Below, one piece after another: positions 709 to 45,504 of a stretch of 45,880 bases of DNA. The stretch covers positions 1 through 45,880 of the IMG/VR virus record IMGVR_UViG_2870484749_000003; one strand, given 5' to 3'. Origin of the DNA: a virus (Duplodnaviria > Heunggongvirae > Uroviricota > Caudoviricetes). The position numbers were made by a program, and so were the translations under genes. Position 1 is the stretch's first letter. Each line of letters opens with the position of its first letter. The notes beneath the pieces were generated by a model. The model was given only the letters and a program-made list of their open reading frames with translations. It was not told the origin of the DNA and made no database searches.

Positions 709-1066
709 TATGTGAAGTTCTTCGATAGTATGGAAGGCATTATATAAAAGGACCCAATATTTATTGGGTTCTTTTTTCTCTATCAATGCTATTAGCAGGG
801 AGATATATCACCAGAGTTTAATGTGTGATTTTTTATTTATCGTCGAACCTGGATTGTTTATCATTGGCCTTAACAAAGTTAACGGCTAATAAGATTATTT
901 CCATCACTTCGTGAGAGCTTCATGCCTTGAGAGGATCTCAATTTTCTTTTGCAATGAGACAGGCGCTTCCTGTTGTTATGGTATAGTACCCCGCTATTGA
1001 GCCTCCTGAATAGTGATGCTGAATAACATAACCCCATGATATATCGATAAAATAATCTCTACATTT

Positions 1067-1174
1067 GAAAATGCACGGTAATTCTGAAATGCAAAAAATC
1101 AACCAAACCAGCGCAATGCCTGAAAAAACTGACGTTCACTGGAGTGGTCGGTTTAGCGTTGCACCAATGCTCGA
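1067..1174. other. attL: native dusA 5' region, imperfectly homologous (~80% by eye) to attR at 44464-44570
   Basis: aaaatgcacggtaattctgaaatgcaaaaaatcaacc...atgctcga aligns with aaaatgcacgataatcatgaaacacaaaaaattaatc...atgctcga at the start of the intact dusA; similarity ends at atgctcga in both copies. Confidence 0.75.
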
Positions 1175-1193
1175 TAGGATGTACCGTTGTTGA
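1071..1193 (+). pseudogene. displaced native dusA 5' fragment (35 dusA-like codons, then 5 codons of prophage-end sequence and a stop)
   Basis: Translates MHGNSEMQKINQTSAMPEKTDVHWSGRFSVAPMLD then RMYRC*, paralleling the N-terminus of the intact DusA at 44467 ([38 protein letters not shown]...). Confidence 0.7.
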
Positions 1194-1318
1194 AAAACAA
1201 GTAGTTATACACTCTGTGGGAGCCTATTGGGAACCCGGCGTTTTCATTTCAAGGTGTAATCCATACGCGGCTTAAGAATGAGATATAATGCGACTTTTAG
1301 TGTTCCGCTTGAGAGGCC

Positions 1319-1855
1319 ATGATGCTTACCCTGGACGAGATAGGTCAATCAGTACGTAACAATATCCAGTTGATTATTGATCATGTCGGCTTACCTCTTG
1401 CTGTTGGTCCGCTCAGTGATGATGATTACAAGATTCTGTGTGGTGGCTATGGTGAGCTTGAATGGGACTATGCGTTAAGTACCTATGGCAACTCCAGAGA
1501 AAAGTATGAGTTCTGCATAAAACTTGTTCAGCAAGGTCGGGTTCAGGGAATACCATCAGGAGCAGCAATTTGTGTTTATGGGGTTGAAGAAAACATCTTT
1601 CGTATCCATATGATCGAAAGGTTTTCTAGAGAAGATGAATCTCACCCATTGAAAGGGCGCATGGTTTTACTCACTCTTATGAGTGCTTTTATATTTTGTA
1701 AAGCTGTTGAATGTAAAGTTGTCCACATTGTAGAGCCAGTACCAGAACTGGTGCAGTATTACGAGTCTTTTGGTTTCCGCATGGAACAGTGCGGTTATGT
1801 GATGTCGGCAGTCATTGATGAGCTGCAGGATATCTTTCTTAAATTTGCTCAGTAG
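1319..1855 (+). CDS. hypothetical cargo protein, possibly GNAT-fold acetyltransferase-like
   Basis: 178 aa ORF with RBS gagagg before ATG; C-terminal YYESFGF resembles GNAT motif B; first gene inside attL, opposite orientation to the early-left operon. Confidence 0.5.
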   Translation: MMLTLDEIGQSVRNNIQLIIDHVGLPLAVGPLSDDDYKILCGGYGELEWDYALSTYGNSREKYEFCIKLVQQGRVQGIPSGAAICVYGVEENIFRIHMIERFSREDESHPLKGRMVLLTLMSAFIFCKAVECKVVHIVEPVPELVQYYESFGFRMEQCGYVMSAVIDELQDIFLKFAQ

Positions 1856-2051
1856 GTATAGACGAGAAGGGTCTACAAATTGTAGGATACCCGTCCAGAT
1901 TACCTTAAAGGTACATCTATGGCAGTCGTTTTGTGCTTAAACTACTAAGAAACGATGTCACCAATCGACATGATCGATTGGCATAAGTTAGCGAAACAAG
2001 CTAGCTTTAAAGAAAGGGTTAGAGACGCCTTTACTGTCTCGGGAGTTTTCT

Positions 2052-2225
2052 ATGAAAGATCAAAAAGCAACCAAGCCACAGGTTAAGTTCGACACAATGA
2101 AAGCATTCGCAGGTATGGGTGCTGCTGTTGAAGTTCTGATGAAGGCTGCTCCTAATGCGTTCACTCACGCTACTGTCTCTGGTAAAGAGCAGCAGGGTAA
2201 GCTTCGTCGTCGCAAAGCAGCATGA
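2052..2225 (+). CDS. small hypothetical protein (57 aa)
   Basis: ATG preceded by gggag RBS at 2041-2045 and followed by an intrinsic terminator; below the 60 aa cutoff of the ORF track. Confidence 0.4.
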   Translation: MKDQKATKPQVKFDTMKAFAGMGAAVEVLMKAAPNAFTHATVSGKEQQGKLRRRKAA

Positions 2226-2244
2226 TCATAGCTGGTGCTTTTTG

Positions 2245-2273
2245 AAAACCCGCCTTCAGGCGGGTTTTTTCTT
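2245..2273 (+). terminator. rho-independent terminator
   Basis: cccgcc-ttca-ggcggg hairpin followed by a T-run (tttttt ctt). Confidence 0.6.
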
Positions 2274-2554
2274 TAGTGATGTTCTTTGTCCTTCTGTTTG
2301 ACTGTTCTGACCTGTTCCCACTCGATACGTCCTTCTTCTCGCCTTTTGTCTATGTATTCCGCAAGATCCTGAATATTGATGCAACGTTTTGCTTTTTGTG
2401 ATGTGCCGATGCGATATGTTGGAACGGGCAACTTACAAGCGTTTGCTTTTGCTTCTGCCGTGGCTGGACTCATACCAAAGTACTTTTGGCTAACTGCTGA
2501 GAGTTCAATGTTTGGGGTATTGAATTCAGCCATCAGTAAAAACAAGGTGTTCAT
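2273..2554 (-). CDS. PrtN-family (pyocin activator-like) DNA-binding protein; start chosen at the MNTLFLLMAEF methionine
   Basis: MNTLFLLMAEFNTPNIELSAVSQKYFGMSPATAEAKANACKLPVPTYRIG matches the PrtN-like family by recollection; GGAG RBS upstream of the internal ATG. Confidence 0.65.
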   Translation of the reverse strand: MNTLFLLMAEFNTPNIELSAVSQKYFGMSPATAEAKANACKLPVPTYRIGTSQKAKRCINIQDLAEYIDKRREEGRIEWEQVRTVKQKDKEHH

Positions 2555-2590
2555 AATTTTCTCCATCAAAACCGGCTGCACCCGGGAAAA

Positions 2591-3163
2591 TTATAATTCT
2601 GTGCTGGTGGCAGGAATTAATTTCTGCCAGATAGCGGAAACATATTTTGCCTGATGACGGGCATCGGCCAGGGCGTTGTGCCGTTCGCCATCGAAAGGCA
2701 TGTCCATTTTGGGGTCGAATCCGATGGAACGCCCAAGCGTAACGATCGTGCGTACATCGTGGTCATTCCAGTATGCCCACGGGCAGATTTGTCCTGCTCG
2801 CTCATAAGCTCCACGTAAAATTACGTTGTCGAAGGTGGCCCCGTTACCCCAGACTTTTAAATATTTTGTATTGTCTGCATGCTGATTAATGAAATGGCTC
2901 AGTTCAGAGAGTGCATCGCTGATCGACAAAGTATCATCAATACAGATTGCAGCTCGTGCTTCAGGGCTTTGTTTCAACCACCACAGGATGGTATCGCCGT
3001 CAGGTGTAGCTCCTTGCCCCATAGCACTTTCCAGGCTAACAACCGTATAGAATTCTTGTCCGATGTCTCCGGTTTCTGGAGTGAAGAACACCGCGCCAAT
3101 GGAAACGATCGGTGCATCCTTATTTTTCCCCATCGTCTCAAGGTCGATCATTAAGTTGTTCAT
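2591..3163 (-). CDS. DnaQ-like 3'-5' exonuclease
   Basis: Starts MNNLMIDLETMG (Asp/Glu exonuclease motif I); start ATG overlaps the upstream stop (TAATG). Confidence 0.7.
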   Translation of the reverse strand: MNNLMIDLETMGKNKDAPIVSIGAVFFTPETGDIGQEFYTVVSLESAMGQGATPDGDTILWWLKQSPEARAAICIDDTLSISDALSELSHFINQHADNTKYLKVWGNGATFDNVILRGAYERAGQICPWAYWNDHDVRTIVTLGRSIGFDPKMDMPFDGERHNALADARHQAKYVSAIWQKLIPATSTEL

Positions 3164-3957
3164 TACTTCACCTCCTGCGGCGGTTCTGGTAGCGGCATCC
3201 AATTGATTACATCGCATTCAGGGATGCTGATATCATCACCAAGCCACCCTTGACCTTCAGACCAGCATTGCACGTAATACCCGTATTCTGTGTTCACTAC
3301 GCACCACTGCGCGTCGTTCGGCATTCGCTCACTACAGCTTATCCAACCATCCGGAGTTACCGGAGAGTTGCGCATTGCGACCTTTAATGCCTCATAGAAG
3401 CAACCTTTCAGATTGTTGAACTGACGCCCATTAAGAGGACCGTGTTCAGTAAGCATGTTGCGTAATTTCCATGCCGCGTCGTTTACTTCGTTGGATGACA
3501 GGGGAGGCAACTTGTAAGTTTGGCTTACAGGTTCGGCACCATGAAGCATGGCGCCGCTCCGCTCTATGCCATCCAGCGCGATTCGCAGTGCCTGAATTGT
3601 GGTAGAGCTATCGTTTGGGGCTATTCCATATCGCTCGAATACAGCTAAATGGTTGCGCATAATCTCAGGCGTAAGCTCTTTGTAAGCATAAGCAAGAGGC
3701 TCTGATGCATTATCCGGCACAACCGACGCAGGCGCGGCAGCATAAACAGGAATAACGTCCGATTGATCTTTATTGCTTTCATCCGTCAAAGCCCAGAATA
3801 ATTTTCCGGCCGGATGTTTGAAAATATAAGCAACTGGCTCTGCTTCCAGTGATGCCAGTGCAATTCGTGCCAGTTCCATTTGTTCGCCACGGGTAAGCCC
3901 GTTTTCAAGCGGGGATTTAATGAACAATTCGATACGTTCTTTAGTGATAGTGCTCAT
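3163..3957 (-). CDS. phage protein with C-terminal DUF551-like domain
   Basis: C-terminal WCVVNTEYGYYVQCWSEGQGWLGDD...INWMPLPEPP is typical of DUF551 prophage proteins; start taken at MSTITKERIEL. Confidence 0.55.
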   Translation of the reverse strand: MSTITKERIELFIKSPLENGLTRGEQMELARIALASLEAEPVAYIFKHPAGKLFWALTDESNKDQSDVIPVYAAAPASVVPDNASEPLAYAYKELTPEIMRNHLAVFERYGIAPNDSSTTIQALRIALDGIERSGAMLHGAEPVSQTYKLPPLSSNEVNDAAWKLRNMLTEHGPLNGRQFNNLKGCFYEALKVAMRNSPVTPDGWISCSERMPNDAQWCVVNTEYGYYVQCWSEGQGWLGDDISIPECDVINWMPLPEPPQEVK

Positions 3958-6254: not shown

Positions 6255-6358
6255 ACAAAACAGAGAAGAACACCTGCGGTGGCAGCCGCCCGGATGGATT
6301 GGATTATGAGCCCGTCGTCCGGTGATGCCCTTCTCTGTTTTGTAAAAAGAGCGGTACC
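6255..6358 (-). promoter_or_regulatory. candidate nut/put-like RNA element: boxA-like CGCTCTTTTTACAA followed by a large hairpin closed by a perfect 14-bp inverted repeat
   Basis: On the minus strand, GCTCTTTTTACAA resembles boxA (GCTCTTTAACAA); arms acaaaacagagaag (6255-6268) and cttctctgttttgt (6330-6343) enclose 61 nt; lies in the ORF-free leader of the early-left operon. Confidence 0.3.
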
Positions 6359-6542
6359 AGCCGGAAGCAAGTGTACAAACTGGTACCGCCAAAGCAGTGG
6401 CTGTTGTGGTGACCGGTGCTGATCTCCGGCTTGCGGTTATTTCAGACTCTCACGGGCGTTTAATTGCCCCGCCGAACAGCTCTTTTCCGCAATAGCTGCA
6501 ATGTCTTTCGCGCATCAGCCTGCGCATTCACCACAACGCTGA

Positions 6543-42970: not shown

Positions 42971-43219
42971 TTAGTGAACAAACCACTCGTCAGCAGACTC
43001 CCAGGTATCTTTCAGAGTCTCCTGAACAAATGTTTTTGCAGAATCTTTATCTGCGGTGCGTGTAACAGAAAGGCCATCGTTGCTGGTGGCTTTTACGATC
43101 ACCTCTACATCGTCATAACGTTTACTGATGCGTCGGGTTAATTCTTCCTTTAACGCATCCACAGCACCGGTTGGCATTTTAGTCATTTTCTCTTTGGCTA
43201 TGCAGATTTCAATACGCAT
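42971..43219 (-). CDS. DinI-family protein
   Basis: [37 protein letters not shown]...[17 protein letters not shown] resembles DinI (81 aa) as recalled; two SOS boxes upstream. Confidence 0.8.
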
Positions 43220-43280: not shown

Positions 43281-44378
43281 TCAAGGGGTCTTATTTCTGC
43301 TCCTTTGGAGCTCTTCAAAACGATTATGTAAAGATTTCGGATACAGTTCGGTATATACCTGCCATAGCACGTTTAATGAACGATGCCCTGTAACCTGGGC
43401 TACTTCCTCAATACTAAAACCAGCCTCAAATAAGCGACTTGCCCCTTCTCTACGCAAATCATGGTATCGCAGATCCTTAATACCTAATTTGCTTCTTACC
43501 CTCTGAAATCCCGCAGTAACAGAAGTGCTGTTATATGGAAAAATGAATTCCGATTTTTTGGGCTGTCGTTGGACGATATCCCAGGCTTCCCCAAGCAAGG
43601 CTACTTTCATGTGGTTGCCTTCCTTTTTGCGTGGATCTTTCCTGTCTCTTACGAGTATAGATTTTTGTTCCTGGTCGAGATCTTCCCATCGTAACCTGCA
43701 TACTTCTCCGATTCGCATACAGGACCACACAGAAAATTTGAGGATATCAACGAACGGAATTTTTGAGCATTTATGAGTAGATCGTTGTTGAAGGCCTTCA
43801 ATGAGCATGTCCAGTTCATCAGATGCTGGTCTACGATTACGACGGTTTGATTTACCAATCAAACCAAGTTTAAGTAGATATGGACGAGCACTTTTCGCCG
43901 GGTTTGATGTGTAATTAATTCCGTATACAGGTTTGGCCGCATCCAGAACACTGCCAAGATAACTAACATCGTGGCTGACTGTTGCTGGACCTGCGCCAGC
44001 GTTGTTTCTTAGCCTGCAATGTTCAATTACGTCATTTTCTGTCAGTTCAGATAGTTTGATCGCGGAGATGTCACTATCCATAAGCAGTTCCAGCACATAT
44101 CTTTTAGTACGGCCTGCTTTACCTCCGGCATTTGGGTCATTTAAATATTTGTGTAGTAAGTCACGGACTGTAAGTCCGTCAACTGCATTTGATGATGGAA
44201 TGCCATATAGATCTAATTCCATCACTTTCTGTGTGCCCCATGTTTTGGCATGAGCATGTTTAGGGAATGTTTTGCTTTCCCTGTAAGTGATAACACCTTT
44301 TTCTTTGATAATCACATTACAGCGATAGCGTGGTGTGCCATCGGATTTTAGTCGTTTCTCTATGTTATAGTACGCCAT
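43281..44378 (-). CDS. int: tyrosine site-specific integrase (dusA-associated type)
   Basis: 365 aa with C-terminal R...HxLR...Y catalytic pattern (RYHDLRREGASRL...HRSLNVLWQVY); adjacent to and divergent from dusA. Confidence 0.9.
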   Translation of the reverse strand: MAYYNIEKRLKSDGTPRYRCNVIIKEKGVITYRESKTFPKHAHAKTWGTQKVMELDLYGIPSSNAVDGLTVRDLLHKYLNDPNAGGKAGRTKRYVLELLMDSDISAIKLSELTENDVIEHCRLRNNAGAGPATVSHDVSYLGSVLDAAKPVYGINYTSNPAKSARPYLLKLGLIGKSNRRNRRPASDELDMLIEGLQQRSTHKCSKIPFVDILKFSVWSCMRIGEVCRLRWEDLDQEQKSILVRDRKDPRKKEGNHMKVALLGEAWDIVQRQPKKSEFIFPYNSTSVTAGFQRVRSKLGIKDLRYHDLRREGASRLFEAGFSIEEVAQVTGHRSLNVLWQVYTELYPKSLHNRFEELQRSRNKTP

Positions 44379-44463: not shown

Positions 44464-44570
44464 AAAATGCACGATAATCATGAAACACAAAAAATTAATC
44501 AAACCAGCGTGATGCCTGAAAAAACTGGTGTTTACTGGAATTCTCGGTTTAGCATTGCTCCTATGCTCGA
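44464..44570. other. attR: prophage-supplied replacement 5' end of dusA, homologous to attL
   Basis: See attL; similarity to 1067-1174 ends at atgctcga (44563-44570). Confidence 0.75.
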
Positions 44571-45504
44571 CTGGACGGACAGACATTGCCGCTATTTCTT
44601 GCGTCTGCTTTCCCGCAATACGTTGCTGTATACCGAAATGGTGACCACAGGGGCGATTATTCACGGTAAAGGTGATTATCTGGCGTACAGTGAAGAAGAA
44701 CATCCGGTAGCGTTGCAACTGGGCGGTAGCGATCCGGCGGCGCTGGCGCAGTGTGCAAAGCTGGCAGAAGCGCGCGGATATGATGAGATCAACCTGAATG
44801 TCGGCTGCCCGTCTGACCGGGTGCAGAACGGCATGTTTGGTGCGTGTCTGATGGGTAATGCGCAGCTGGTTGCCGACTGCGTGAAAGCGATGCGCGATGT
44901 GGTGTCGATTCCGGTGACGGTGAAAACGCGTATTGGCATCGACGACCAGGACAGCTATGAATTTCTCTGCGATTTCATCAATACCGTTTCCGGCAAAGGC
45001 GAGTGTGAGATGTTCATCATCCACGCACGTAAAGCCTGGCTTTCGGGGTTAAGCCCGAAAGAAAACCGTGAAATCCCGCCGCTCGATTATCCGCGTGTGT
45101 ATCAACTGAAGCGTGACTTTCCGCATCTGACAATGTCGATTAACGGTGGTATCAAGTCGCTGGAAGAGGCCAAAGCACACCTGCAACATATGGATGGCGT
45201 GATGGTCGGGCGCGAGGCGTATCAGAATCCGGGTATTCTGGCGGCGGTAGACCGGGAGATCTTTGGTTCCTCGGATACCGATGCCGATCCGGTGGCGGTA
45301 GTGCGCGCCATGTATCCGTACATTGAGCGTGAACTCAGCCAGGGGACGTATCTCGGCCATATTACCCGGCATATGTTGGGCTTGTTCCAGGGTATTCCTG
45401 GCGCGCGGCAGTGGCGGCGTTATTTAAGTGAAAATGCCCATAAAGCGGGTGCAGACATTAATGTGCTGGAACACGCGCTCAAACTGGTGGCGGATAAGCG
45501 TTAA
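44467..45504 (+). CDS. dusA: tRNA-dihydrouridine synthase A with prophage-derived N-terminal codons
   Basis: 345 aa Dus-family TIM-barrel protein ([15 protein letters not shown], catalytic Cys region [11 protein letters not shown]); followed by pspG as in E. coli. Confidence 0.95.

Follow-up and report, generated by a model that had tools for sequence, protein, structure and literature searches.

A putative two-gene moron of temperate phages of enterobacteria, pairing a protein of predicted, divergent GNAT fold with a small, strongly codon-optimised partner

The DNA analysed here, which we call the window, is a stretch of 45,880 nucleotides from a Caudoviricetes record (IMG/VR virus record IMGVR_UViG_2870484749_000003, positions 1 to 45,880). 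Judged by its sequence, it holds an mEp460-like lambdoid prophage integrated in dusA, and at the attL end of that prophage lie two small plus-strand genes, here named A and B. We read positions 1284 to 2269 as one mobile accessory cassette of about 1 kb, which comprises a box of the -10 type, A, a structured spacer with a second such box, B, and a terminator. On this reading A–B is an uncharacterised two-gene moron, in which a divergent GNAT-fold protein is accompanied by a small, highly codon-optimised partner and for which expression in the lysogen is putative. An earlier reading made from the sequence alone (the sequence-only reading) had described two cargo genes at this place; both are indeed accessory, but they are not independent of each other and travel as one co-inherited pair. 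The parts of the cassette are as follows.

1284–1289, plus strand: TATAAT box of the -10 type (gaTATAATg) upstream of A, present as literal sequence, with no convincing -35.
1322–1855, plus strand: gene A, 177 amino acids (aa), gp23 of phage mEp460, phrog_4350; from the open reading frame (ORF), its annotation and the AlphaFold2 fold.
1856–2051, plus strand: A–B spacer of 196 nt, structured, specific to the cassette and with no conserved ORF.
1859–1888, plus strand: candidate internal promoter for B, TAGACG-18 nt-TAGGAT, with a -10-like box at 1883–1888 and a putative function.
1901–1913 (H1), about 1921–1959 (H2), 1961–1981 (H3), 1985–2007 (H4) and 2022–2040 (H5), plus strand: hairpins or palindromes of the spacer, from single-sequence folds.
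2052–2225, plus strand: gene B, a basic protein of 57 aa, gp24 of mEp460, phrog_2741; the ORF neighbouring A.
2244–2269, plus strand: strong intrinsic terminator of the cassette, an 11-bp stem with six GC pairs, followed by a T-run.

Comparison of loci shows A and B to be inherited together across phages and genera, in a cassette that evidently moves independently of the phage modules around it. The two genes occur together in at least 13 independent contexts. For example, they occupy the slot between attL and the excisionase gene xis in E. coli and Salmonella, the interval from the antiterminator Q (or DUF968) to the lysis genes (holin) in Franconibacter, Serratia, Edwardsiella, Enterobacter and phage Eeyore, and a prophage edge beside a cI-like repressor in Pseudescherichia. 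In Photorhabdus the pair sits inside the tail and baseplate module of a myovirus, and in L113, an AT-rich metagenomic prophage, it follows a tail fibre gene. B follows A on the same strand at every A locus with readable downstream sequence, and the link persists where A has diverged to 42% (Eeyore), 36% (Shewanella) and 32% identity (L113). The L113 ORFs are only 1 nt apart and are followed by the same kind of terminator; from this distance we take A and B to be translationally coupled there. The presence of A–B with its terminator at the Q–lysis interval, in a tail module, beside a tail fibre gene and at attL, together with the replacement of A by other genes described below, bears out the classification of these genes as cargo rather than core genes.

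The association is asymmetric. A without B was seen in none of the loci whose downstream sequence was readable, and B without A occurs in 20 of the 80 IMG/VR loci; among 5426 complete E. coli genomes, A is present in 357 and B in 561. Because A is never alone and B often lacks A, A appears to need B, and not the reverse. In phages Lys8385Vzw and SKA5, in enterotoxigenic E. coli (ETEC) H10407 and in these 20 IMG/VR loci, a Panacea-domain protein and a 139-aa ORF stand ahead of B and its terminator, an arrangement that corresponds to PanAT, a Panacea-domain antitoxin with its toxin (PMC8832971). The junction at which PanAT replaces A lies 13 nt upstream of the B start codon, and behind PanAT, where A is missing, B is 95–98% identical.

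The slots of these sister dusA phages (L007 2486–3474, L008 2483–3471 and L112 1983–4357) hold the Panacea antitoxin (PF13274, E 2e-19) and the 139-aa putative toxin, and the H10407 slot holds in addition a CoiA-like protein (nuclease). All three have B next to the PanT-like ORF, on its downstream side; what comes after B is CoiA in H10407 and xis in the other two. Since sister phages carry PanAT here and H10407 also carries the CoiA-like nuclease, the attL–xis slot appears to collect cargo of the toxin–antitoxin (TA) or defence type. At the Q–holin position, the copies in Franconibacter and Enterobacter have a 63-aa ORF after B (L003 7252–7443 and L028 4301–4492) with no Pfam or PADLOC match; it may represent a third gene of the cassette, one that the window lacks.

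B is a genuine coding gene and is strongly codon-optimised. That it is a real gene follows from its ratio of nonsynonymous to synonymous divergence (dN/dS 0.09–0.33 against nine other copies) together with a frame-specific codon adaptation: the codon adaptation index (CAI), calculated with Sharp–Li E. coli weights, is 0.56 in frame and 0.17 and 0.21 in the other frames. This is the highest value among all ORFs of at least 50 aa in the window, where those of at least 120 aa have a mean of 0.27 (standard deviation 0.06, maximum 0.37). Five other Enterobacteriaceae copies give 0.52–0.60 for B and 0.25–0.29 for A. In addition, synonymous divergence is several-fold lower in B than in A, which we attribute to the strong codon optimisation of B. 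The protein belongs to phrog_2741 (E 8e-36, function unknown) and has no match to Pfam, NCBIfam or PADLOC-DB 2.0 models at E ≤ 1; its homologues, of 56–58 aa, fall into 48 clusters at 68–98% identity. The AlphaFold2 model has a mean predicted local distance difference test score (pLDDT) of 62 and places helices only at residues 15–40, between basic disordered tails. It is too poor for a fold search, and a profile search of the PDB returned DARPin noise only. An FDT motif precedes the helix in nearly all homologues (YEV in Shewanella), and all of them end in basic residues followed by AA, IA or VA, here ...RKAA.

Three further points concern the extent and identity of B. Escherichia phage Eeyore (PP925821.1) has a clear 53-aa homologue (MEMKKERLFDT...RRRVREAA; L116 3295–3456) that is unannotated in GenBank, where the record instead has several short ORFs, in other frames, from the A homologue up to the methyltransferase. 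Some genomes carry an N-terminally extended B of 79–89 aa (clusters P0050, P0057 and P0062), with its ATG inside hairpin H2/H3; the extension is in frame in Salmonella, out of frame in the window and stopped in Pseudescherichia, and looks like a gene-calling artefact. We also considered B as a ribbon-helix-helix (RHH) repressor acting on the spacer palindromes, which is unlikely: its helices have unsuitable lengths, and the RHH models gave no match.

The start of A had been placed at 1319. The second ATG, at 1322, is most likely the true start, because the gene is annotated as 534 nt in RefSeq and GenBank, every homologue opens with ML(T/S)L, and the spacing of the AGAGG Shine–Dalgarno sequence fits 1322 alone. 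With this refinement, both genes stand where the sequence-only reading had put them, on the plus strand and inside the prophage, whose attL lies at about 1150–1175. A belongs to phrog_4350 (E 2e-103, function unknown). Its dN/dS of about 0.04 indicates strong purifying selection, and it has close homologues (58–100% identity) only in Enterobacterales; an exhaustive profile search of 1.8 billion representatives gave 80 clusters in total. A short direct repeat within the gene at 1697–1722 (TGTAAAGCTGT and TGTAAAGTTGT, 15-nt spacing) is probably due to chance.

The sequence-only reading had called A GNAT-like on the strength of one motif, YYESFGF (residues 146–152 of the 177-aa protein). The assignment holds at the level of the predicted fold, but sequence profiles do not recognise it. 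At E ≤ 1, A matches 0 Pfam, 0 NCBIfam and 0 PADLOC-DB 2.0 models, and when the GNAT models of Pfam were compared with 55 diverse members of the A family only one touched, with Acetyltransf_1 at E 0.0058; some UniRef entries already label homologues as N-acetyltransferase. The AlphaFold2 model (pLDDT 81.3, predicted template modelling score 0.81, 27 homologues in the input) has the GNAT-type topology beta1-alpha1-alpha2-beta2-4-alpha3-beta5-alpha4-beta6, with an added N-terminal helix (4–22) and a C-terminal helix that replaces beta7. A Foldseek search of the PDB with this model gave 251 chains at E ≤ 1e-3, and the best 50 listed are all GNATs at probability 1.00, with template modelling (TM) scores of 0.45–0.64 and identities of 8–16%. 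The best listed matches include MJ1062 (3eo4), AtaT, GCN5, NatD, SpeG, KacT, RimI and TacT3, among which the toxins AtaT, KacT and TacT3 hold ranks 4, 7, 9, 17 and 22. The viral structure library BFVD returned 45 matches at E ≤ 1e-3, mostly annotated as GNAT.

Motif B of A reads Y147-E-S-F-G151-F152 (Y-x-x-x-G-F), with Y147 conserved in at least 90% of the 55 diverse members, and it is the sole region of A that aligns to GNATs at the sequence level: hhalign sets A 141–156 on RimI 109–125, with Y147 opposite RimI Y115. The beta4 glutamate is also conserved. The acetyl-CoA loop Q/RxxGxG/A between beta4 and alpha3 is absent, and the loop reads S-H-P-L-K-G-R (107–113), that is HPLxGR. HPL.G is invariant in close relatives and is also the consensus of the wide family, with a single glycine in the loop, which at 13 residues is longer than the canonical form and is modelled at a pLDDT of about 63. 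The broad-family profile finds its best PDB matches in nourseothricin acetyltransferase (E 0.069) and AAC(6′) (E 0.14), both non-significant; the close-family profile gave spurious matches to designed HIV gp41 constructs over 40 residues, which were discarded. The model thus supports a GNAT fold for A, for which the word acetyltransferase applies at fold level only, in an outlier family. As in RimI, MJ1062 and SpeG, the topology, the 251 PDB chains and the position of the motif-B tyrosine are those of the GNAT superfamily; A differs from it in having no significant Pfam or NCBIfam GNAT match, HPLxGR in a longer loop, TM scores of only 0.5–0.64 to these enzymes, the extra N-terminal helix and the C-terminal helix in place of beta7.

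The sequence-only reading had given the genes a promoter-like sequence with a -10 box near 1283. A literal TATAAT is present at 1284–1289 and its position is conserved across contexts, but it has no -35 and the scan finds promoter-like sites below chance expectation (three in 700–2700, vs 4.4 expected from shuffles); the box itself is not called by this consensus scan and, taken alone, is no better than chance. In Salmonella, Pseudescherichia, Escherichia sp. and Franconibacter, a TAYAAT-type box precedes A by about 30–37 nt; TAAACT takes its place in Enterobacter, and the distant L113 copy has TATATAAT upstream of A. The box is thus kept in copies from differing contexts, including those beside a host gene or Q, and because its position is conserved across these different phage contexts, a putative promoter borne by the cassette itself is supported, presumably one that is weak or factor-dependent.

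B probably has a promoter-like box of its own within the structured spacer. The sequence TA(G/C)GAT, close to the 5′ end of the spacer, does not vary among 10 aligned copies, and the box is TGATAGGAT in Serratia, TGCTACGAT in Edwardsiella and TGGTAGAAT in Shewanella, where TGnTAGGAT or TGnTAGAAT corresponds to the extended -10 form. The candidate matches 8 of 12 consensus positions, which is below the scan threshold, and has no good -35. The spacer folds with a minimum free energy of -58.6 kcal/mol, vs -44.0 ± 3.95 for shuffles (z -3.7), and z ranges from -2.3 to -5.5 in 9/10 Enterobacteriaceae copies; the Edwardsiella, Shewanella, Photorhabdus and P. vulneris copies are not over-structured. 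Its length is 156–199 nt in the aligned Enterobacteriaceae, 177–183 nt in Edwardsiella and Serratia, 163 nt in Shewanella, 248 nt in Eeyore, 93 nt in Photorhabdus and 1 nt in L113. Hairpin H5 abuts the B Shine–Dalgarno sequence (GGGAG, 2041–2045). RNAalifold recovers H1, H3 and H4 with a covariation term of 0.06 and two-sided changes in 3/28 pairs, and H2 and H4 stay hairpins with different sequence in Enterobacter and Franconibacter. Conservation of the hairpins is chiefly one of sequence, and compensatory changes are nearly absent, so that we keep the claim of RNA structure weak; the hairpins may act either as RNA structure or as DNA palindromes.

No Rfam family matches the spacer (a search at E ≤ 1 gave sub-threshold matches only, all to the terminator hairpin), and ARAGORN finds no tRNA in it. 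The spacer is present in 357 E. coli genomes, the same number as A. It occurs only with A and at one place in each of these genomes, and we rejected it as a dispersed repeat or miniature inverted-repeat transposable element. Nor is the 43-aa spacer ORF at 1955–2086 a gene: neither its frame nor its length is conserved, and it overlaps B out of frame. The terminator that had been noted behind B is confirmed at 2244–2269 and is kept behind B in other genera, with homologues that differ in their loops in Franconibacter, Pseudescherichia, Enterobacter, Serratia and L113. An A-run on its 5′ side makes it partly bidirectional, so that it also faces xis.

The reading that we prefer, at a probability of roughly 0.35, is that A–B is a toxin/antidote-like module with A as the effector and B as a labile antidote. 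A would be an acyl-CoA-dependent N-acyltransferase acting on a macromolecular target, in the manner of the tRNA-acetylating GNAT toxins, and B would be its cognate partner, which binds A and holds it in check. In the lysogen, the boxes of the cassette could drive transcription, and the host dusA promoter could add to it by reading through the truncated dusA′ ORF. B would be made in excess, owing to its own promoter and optimal codons, and would probably be short-lived, given a disordered, basic C-terminus (...RKAA) that resembles ClpX recognition motifs. A fall in B synthesis, for instance through host shut-off by a superinfecting phage or through loss of the element, would then leave A active and arrest growth, and this arrest would serve the prophage as exclusion or addiction. 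The occurrence of B alone but never of A alone would be expected, because in a toxin/antidote pair A would need B and not the reverse. This strict asymmetric co-inheritance, the coupling in L113, the toxin-like structure of A and the presence of a TA pair in the same slot all suggest such a module. The same is suggested by the make-up of B, apparently built for high synthesis and possibly fast turnover, and by a separate promoter-like box such as is found in toxin-first TA operons.

Several observations weigh against this reading. Binding of the cofactor and catalytic competence are not assured for the modelled A, given HPLxGR in place of the acetyl-CoA loop, and Foldseek scores do not separate the toxin GNATs from RimI, SpeG and GCN5 (TM 0.5–0.64 for all). 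In known GNAT toxin systems the antitoxin is an RHH/DUF1778 protein whose gene overlaps the toxin gene from the upstream side. B is encoded downstream instead, at a distance of 160–200 nt in Enterobacteriaceae, and no DNA-binding domain can be detected in it. In addition, very high codon adaptation is atypical of antitoxins, and B, since it is kept intact behind PanAT, may have a function of its own. The putative degron is a lead: the ...RRRKAA end of B would resemble C-terminal recognition classes of ClpX (ssrA-like AA, MuA-like RRKKAI). Lastly, many relatives carry the cassette downstream of Q in the late operon, which makes late lytic expression as possible as lysogen expression; the late-operon position of most relatives fits a lytic role as well as a role in the lysogen. 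A more specific version, in which A–B would be a new GNAT toxin/antidote of the abortive-infection or addiction type, strikes us as rather doubtful. Such a module would combine a non-canonical loop in A with a non-RHH, downstream, highly expressed and protease-labile antidote, in Enterobacteriaceae with its own promoter and a structured leader of about 160 nt.

In the main rival explanation, A would acetylate a particular host or phage target to the advantage of the phage, with B as its substrate, adaptor or specificity subunit rather than an antidote. The modification might inactivate a host defence protein, alter virion or translation components late in infection, or convert the lysogen; AcrVA5, a GNAT anti-CRISPR, is a precedent. 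The GNAT fold with its conserved motif-B tyrosine is what such an enzyme would show, phage GNATs of unknown role are common, and the cassette is most often found right behind Q, in the orientation of the late genes, which would give strong lytic expression. High-expression codons would suit B as an abundant effector or substrate, and its persistence without A also fits. Yet B homologues have no universally conserved lysine or other acceptor, no resemblance to any known anti-defence protein was found, the finding that A is never alone is not predicted, and the copies in the attL slot stand outside the late operon and face away from it. We hold this explanation to be possible, though on balance improbable, and the three that follow to be less likely. 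The loop substitution points to one of these, namely that A has a GNAT fold but no catalytic activity and serves as a scaffold in the way of the regulator PanZ/PanM; it would act through binding instead of acyl transfer and form with B a regulatory complex acting on host or phage gene expression. Replacement of Q/RxxGxG/A by HPLxGR in a 13-residue loop of lower confidence, and the failure of any Pfam GNAT model to rise above noise in 55 members (the single match being that at E 0.0058), fit a scaffold; conservation of the motif-B tyrosine and the beta4 glutamate does not, and a ligand-binding site seems to be preserved, to judge from the dN/dS of about 0.04 and the invariance of HPL.G in the loop. 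We regard a scaffold as unlikely.

More unlikely in our estimation is that A detoxifies a small molecule (an antibiotic, a microcin or an amine toxin) by N-acetylation, as a moron for resistance or immunity, with B unrelated and merely co-transcribed. The PDB profile matches to nourseothricin acetyltransferase and AAC(6′) hint at this, as do SpeG-type polyamine acetyltransferases among the fold matches and the size of A, which at about 180 aa is typical for such enzymes. However, these profile E-values are non-significant, no NCBIfam resistance model matches (antimicrobial resistance families included), the acetyl-CoA loop is non-canonical, and strict co-inheritance with B down to 32% identity, together with coupling in L113, argues for a functional link between the two genes. 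Least probable of all, and very much so, is that an RNA from 1856–2269 (the structured spacer, possibly with the B mRNA) is the important product and the coding of B secondary. The spacer does fold far better than shuffles, blocks of it are highly conserved, and synonymous divergence in B is unusually low; but the B protein is clearly under purifying selection, and its frame-specific codon optimisation suffices to explain the low synonymous divergence. Moreover, L113 lacks the spacer, Photorhabdus has only a short one, and those of Edwardsiella, Shewanella and P. vulneris show no excess of structure; compensatory changes are almost absent, and Rfam gives no match.

The closest known counterparts of a toxin/antidote-like A–B are the type II GNAT TA systems (AtaRT, TacAT, KacAT and ItaRT). 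These, too, are two-gene modules carried by mobile elements, in which the GNAT-fold protein has about 175 aa, and their toxins are among the best structural matches to A. B is small and partly disordered, and occurrence is asymmetric in the same sense, with a partner that can stand alone and a GNAT that cannot. The differences are that no RHH/DUF1778 ORF lies upstream of A, where attL and dusA′ are found, that B is downstream and without a Pfam match, and that in Enterobacteriaceae a structured spacer with its own promoter-like box separates the genes. PanAT (PMC8832971) shares the attL–xis slot in sister dusA phages, where it is followed by the same B and terminator. A is unrelated to it in sequence, and the likeness shows that the slot swaps cargo of the TA type, not that A–B is PanAT.

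As a unit of cargo, A–B resembles the morons of lambdoid phages (bor and lom of lambda, stx downstream of Q), a class reportedly defined by Hendrix and colleagues. Like them, it forms an insert complete in itself, bounded by a promoter-like box and by an intrinsic terminator, is present, absent or replaced at one point in otherwise similar phages, and sits in the classical places for morons, the Q–lysis interval and the prophage end. It differs in being a single two-gene unit found at several positions, in prophages of both the siphovirus and the myovirus type. Accession-based and keyword searches of the literature found nothing relevant on either protein. No link was established to Shewanella SP1, a dusA prophage that enhances the use of D-amino acids (PMC10845958); that paper makes no mention of an acetyltransferase.

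The features that neighbour the cassette are the following.

1065–1193, plus strand: 5′ fragment of the host dusA at attL; its translation is the DusA N-terminus and then breaks off into the prophage.
2273–2581, minus strand: PrtN-family excisionase, xis (PF11112, E 4e-23; phrog_1300 excisionase), which ends the early-left operon and bounds the cargo slot.
2591–3217, minus strand: Rv2179c-like 3′-5′ exonuclease, by family match.

By megablast, positions 1150–2300 share 99.2% identity with phage mEp460 and match many E. coli chromosomes at 100%. The window opens in the E. coli chromosome, where the ORF at 1–708 encodes a DUF2713 protein (yjbM-like). Alignment with the mEp460 attP sets the attL crossover at about 1150–1175, with host-type dusA before it and phage-identical sequence after it. 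At the other end, an integrase (43281–44378, minus strand) is followed by a complete dusA (44467–45504) with a phage-supplied 5′ end; the attP alignment and this restored dusA together confirm the prophage boundary. In identical chromosomes RefSeq gives the order tRNA-dihydrouridine synthase (partial), hypothetical, hypothetical, pyocin activator PrtN family protein, and in the genome of phage mEp460 both genes lie between attP/int and xis. This corresponds to the dusA-specific integrase arrangement described in PMC4482086, with insertion in the 5′ end of dusA, a replacement 5′ end at attR beside int and a dusA′ stub at attL. The likeness concerns the host prophage only, as the cassette is independent of dusA and is also found in phages integrated elsewhere. 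A and B converge on xis and the exonuclease gene, which confirms the orientation opposite to the early-left operon that had been read from the sequence. A terminator scan predicts none between the dusA′ stub and A, so that read-through from the host dusA promoter would be possible in the lysogen. A DinI-like gene (42971–43219, minus strand) beside int has the second-highest codon adaptation in the window (0.43) and, like B, lies at a prophage end, outside the main operons.

The sole published transcript that we found for this prophage type is sRNA-17, an ArcA-modulated small RNA (sRNA) of E. coli K1 RS218 that occurs in mEp460-type prophages (PMC7719688). We considered whether this 193-nt sRNA could be the A–B spacer and rejected it: the published primers and Northern probe match exactly at 6351–6380 and 6427–6466, 4 kb away, which places sRNA-17 at 6345–6537 (plus strand) in the early-left region and outside the cassette. 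That study dropped genes annotated as hypothetical protein before it defined intergenic regions, and for this reason sRNA-17 may overlap an ORF.

The pair is common, being found in E. coli, including O157:H7, O111 and ETEC strains, and widespread in prophages of Salmonella and Enterobacter, yet annotation calls the two proteins no more than hypothetical, and neither falls into a curated family. The finding would not surprise a phage biologist; what is distinctive is the coupling of A and B, the codon optimisation of B and the structured spacer. Recognition of A–B as one mobile, co-inherited unit turns two hypothetical genes into a concrete and cheaply testable hypothesis. If A is a mere accessory acetyltransferase, A–B would be one more ordinary moron. 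If the pair is a toxin/antidote or exclusion module, it would represent a new type of partner for GNAT toxins and would help to explain the cargo that lambdoid phages carry in the attL–xis and Q–lysis slots.

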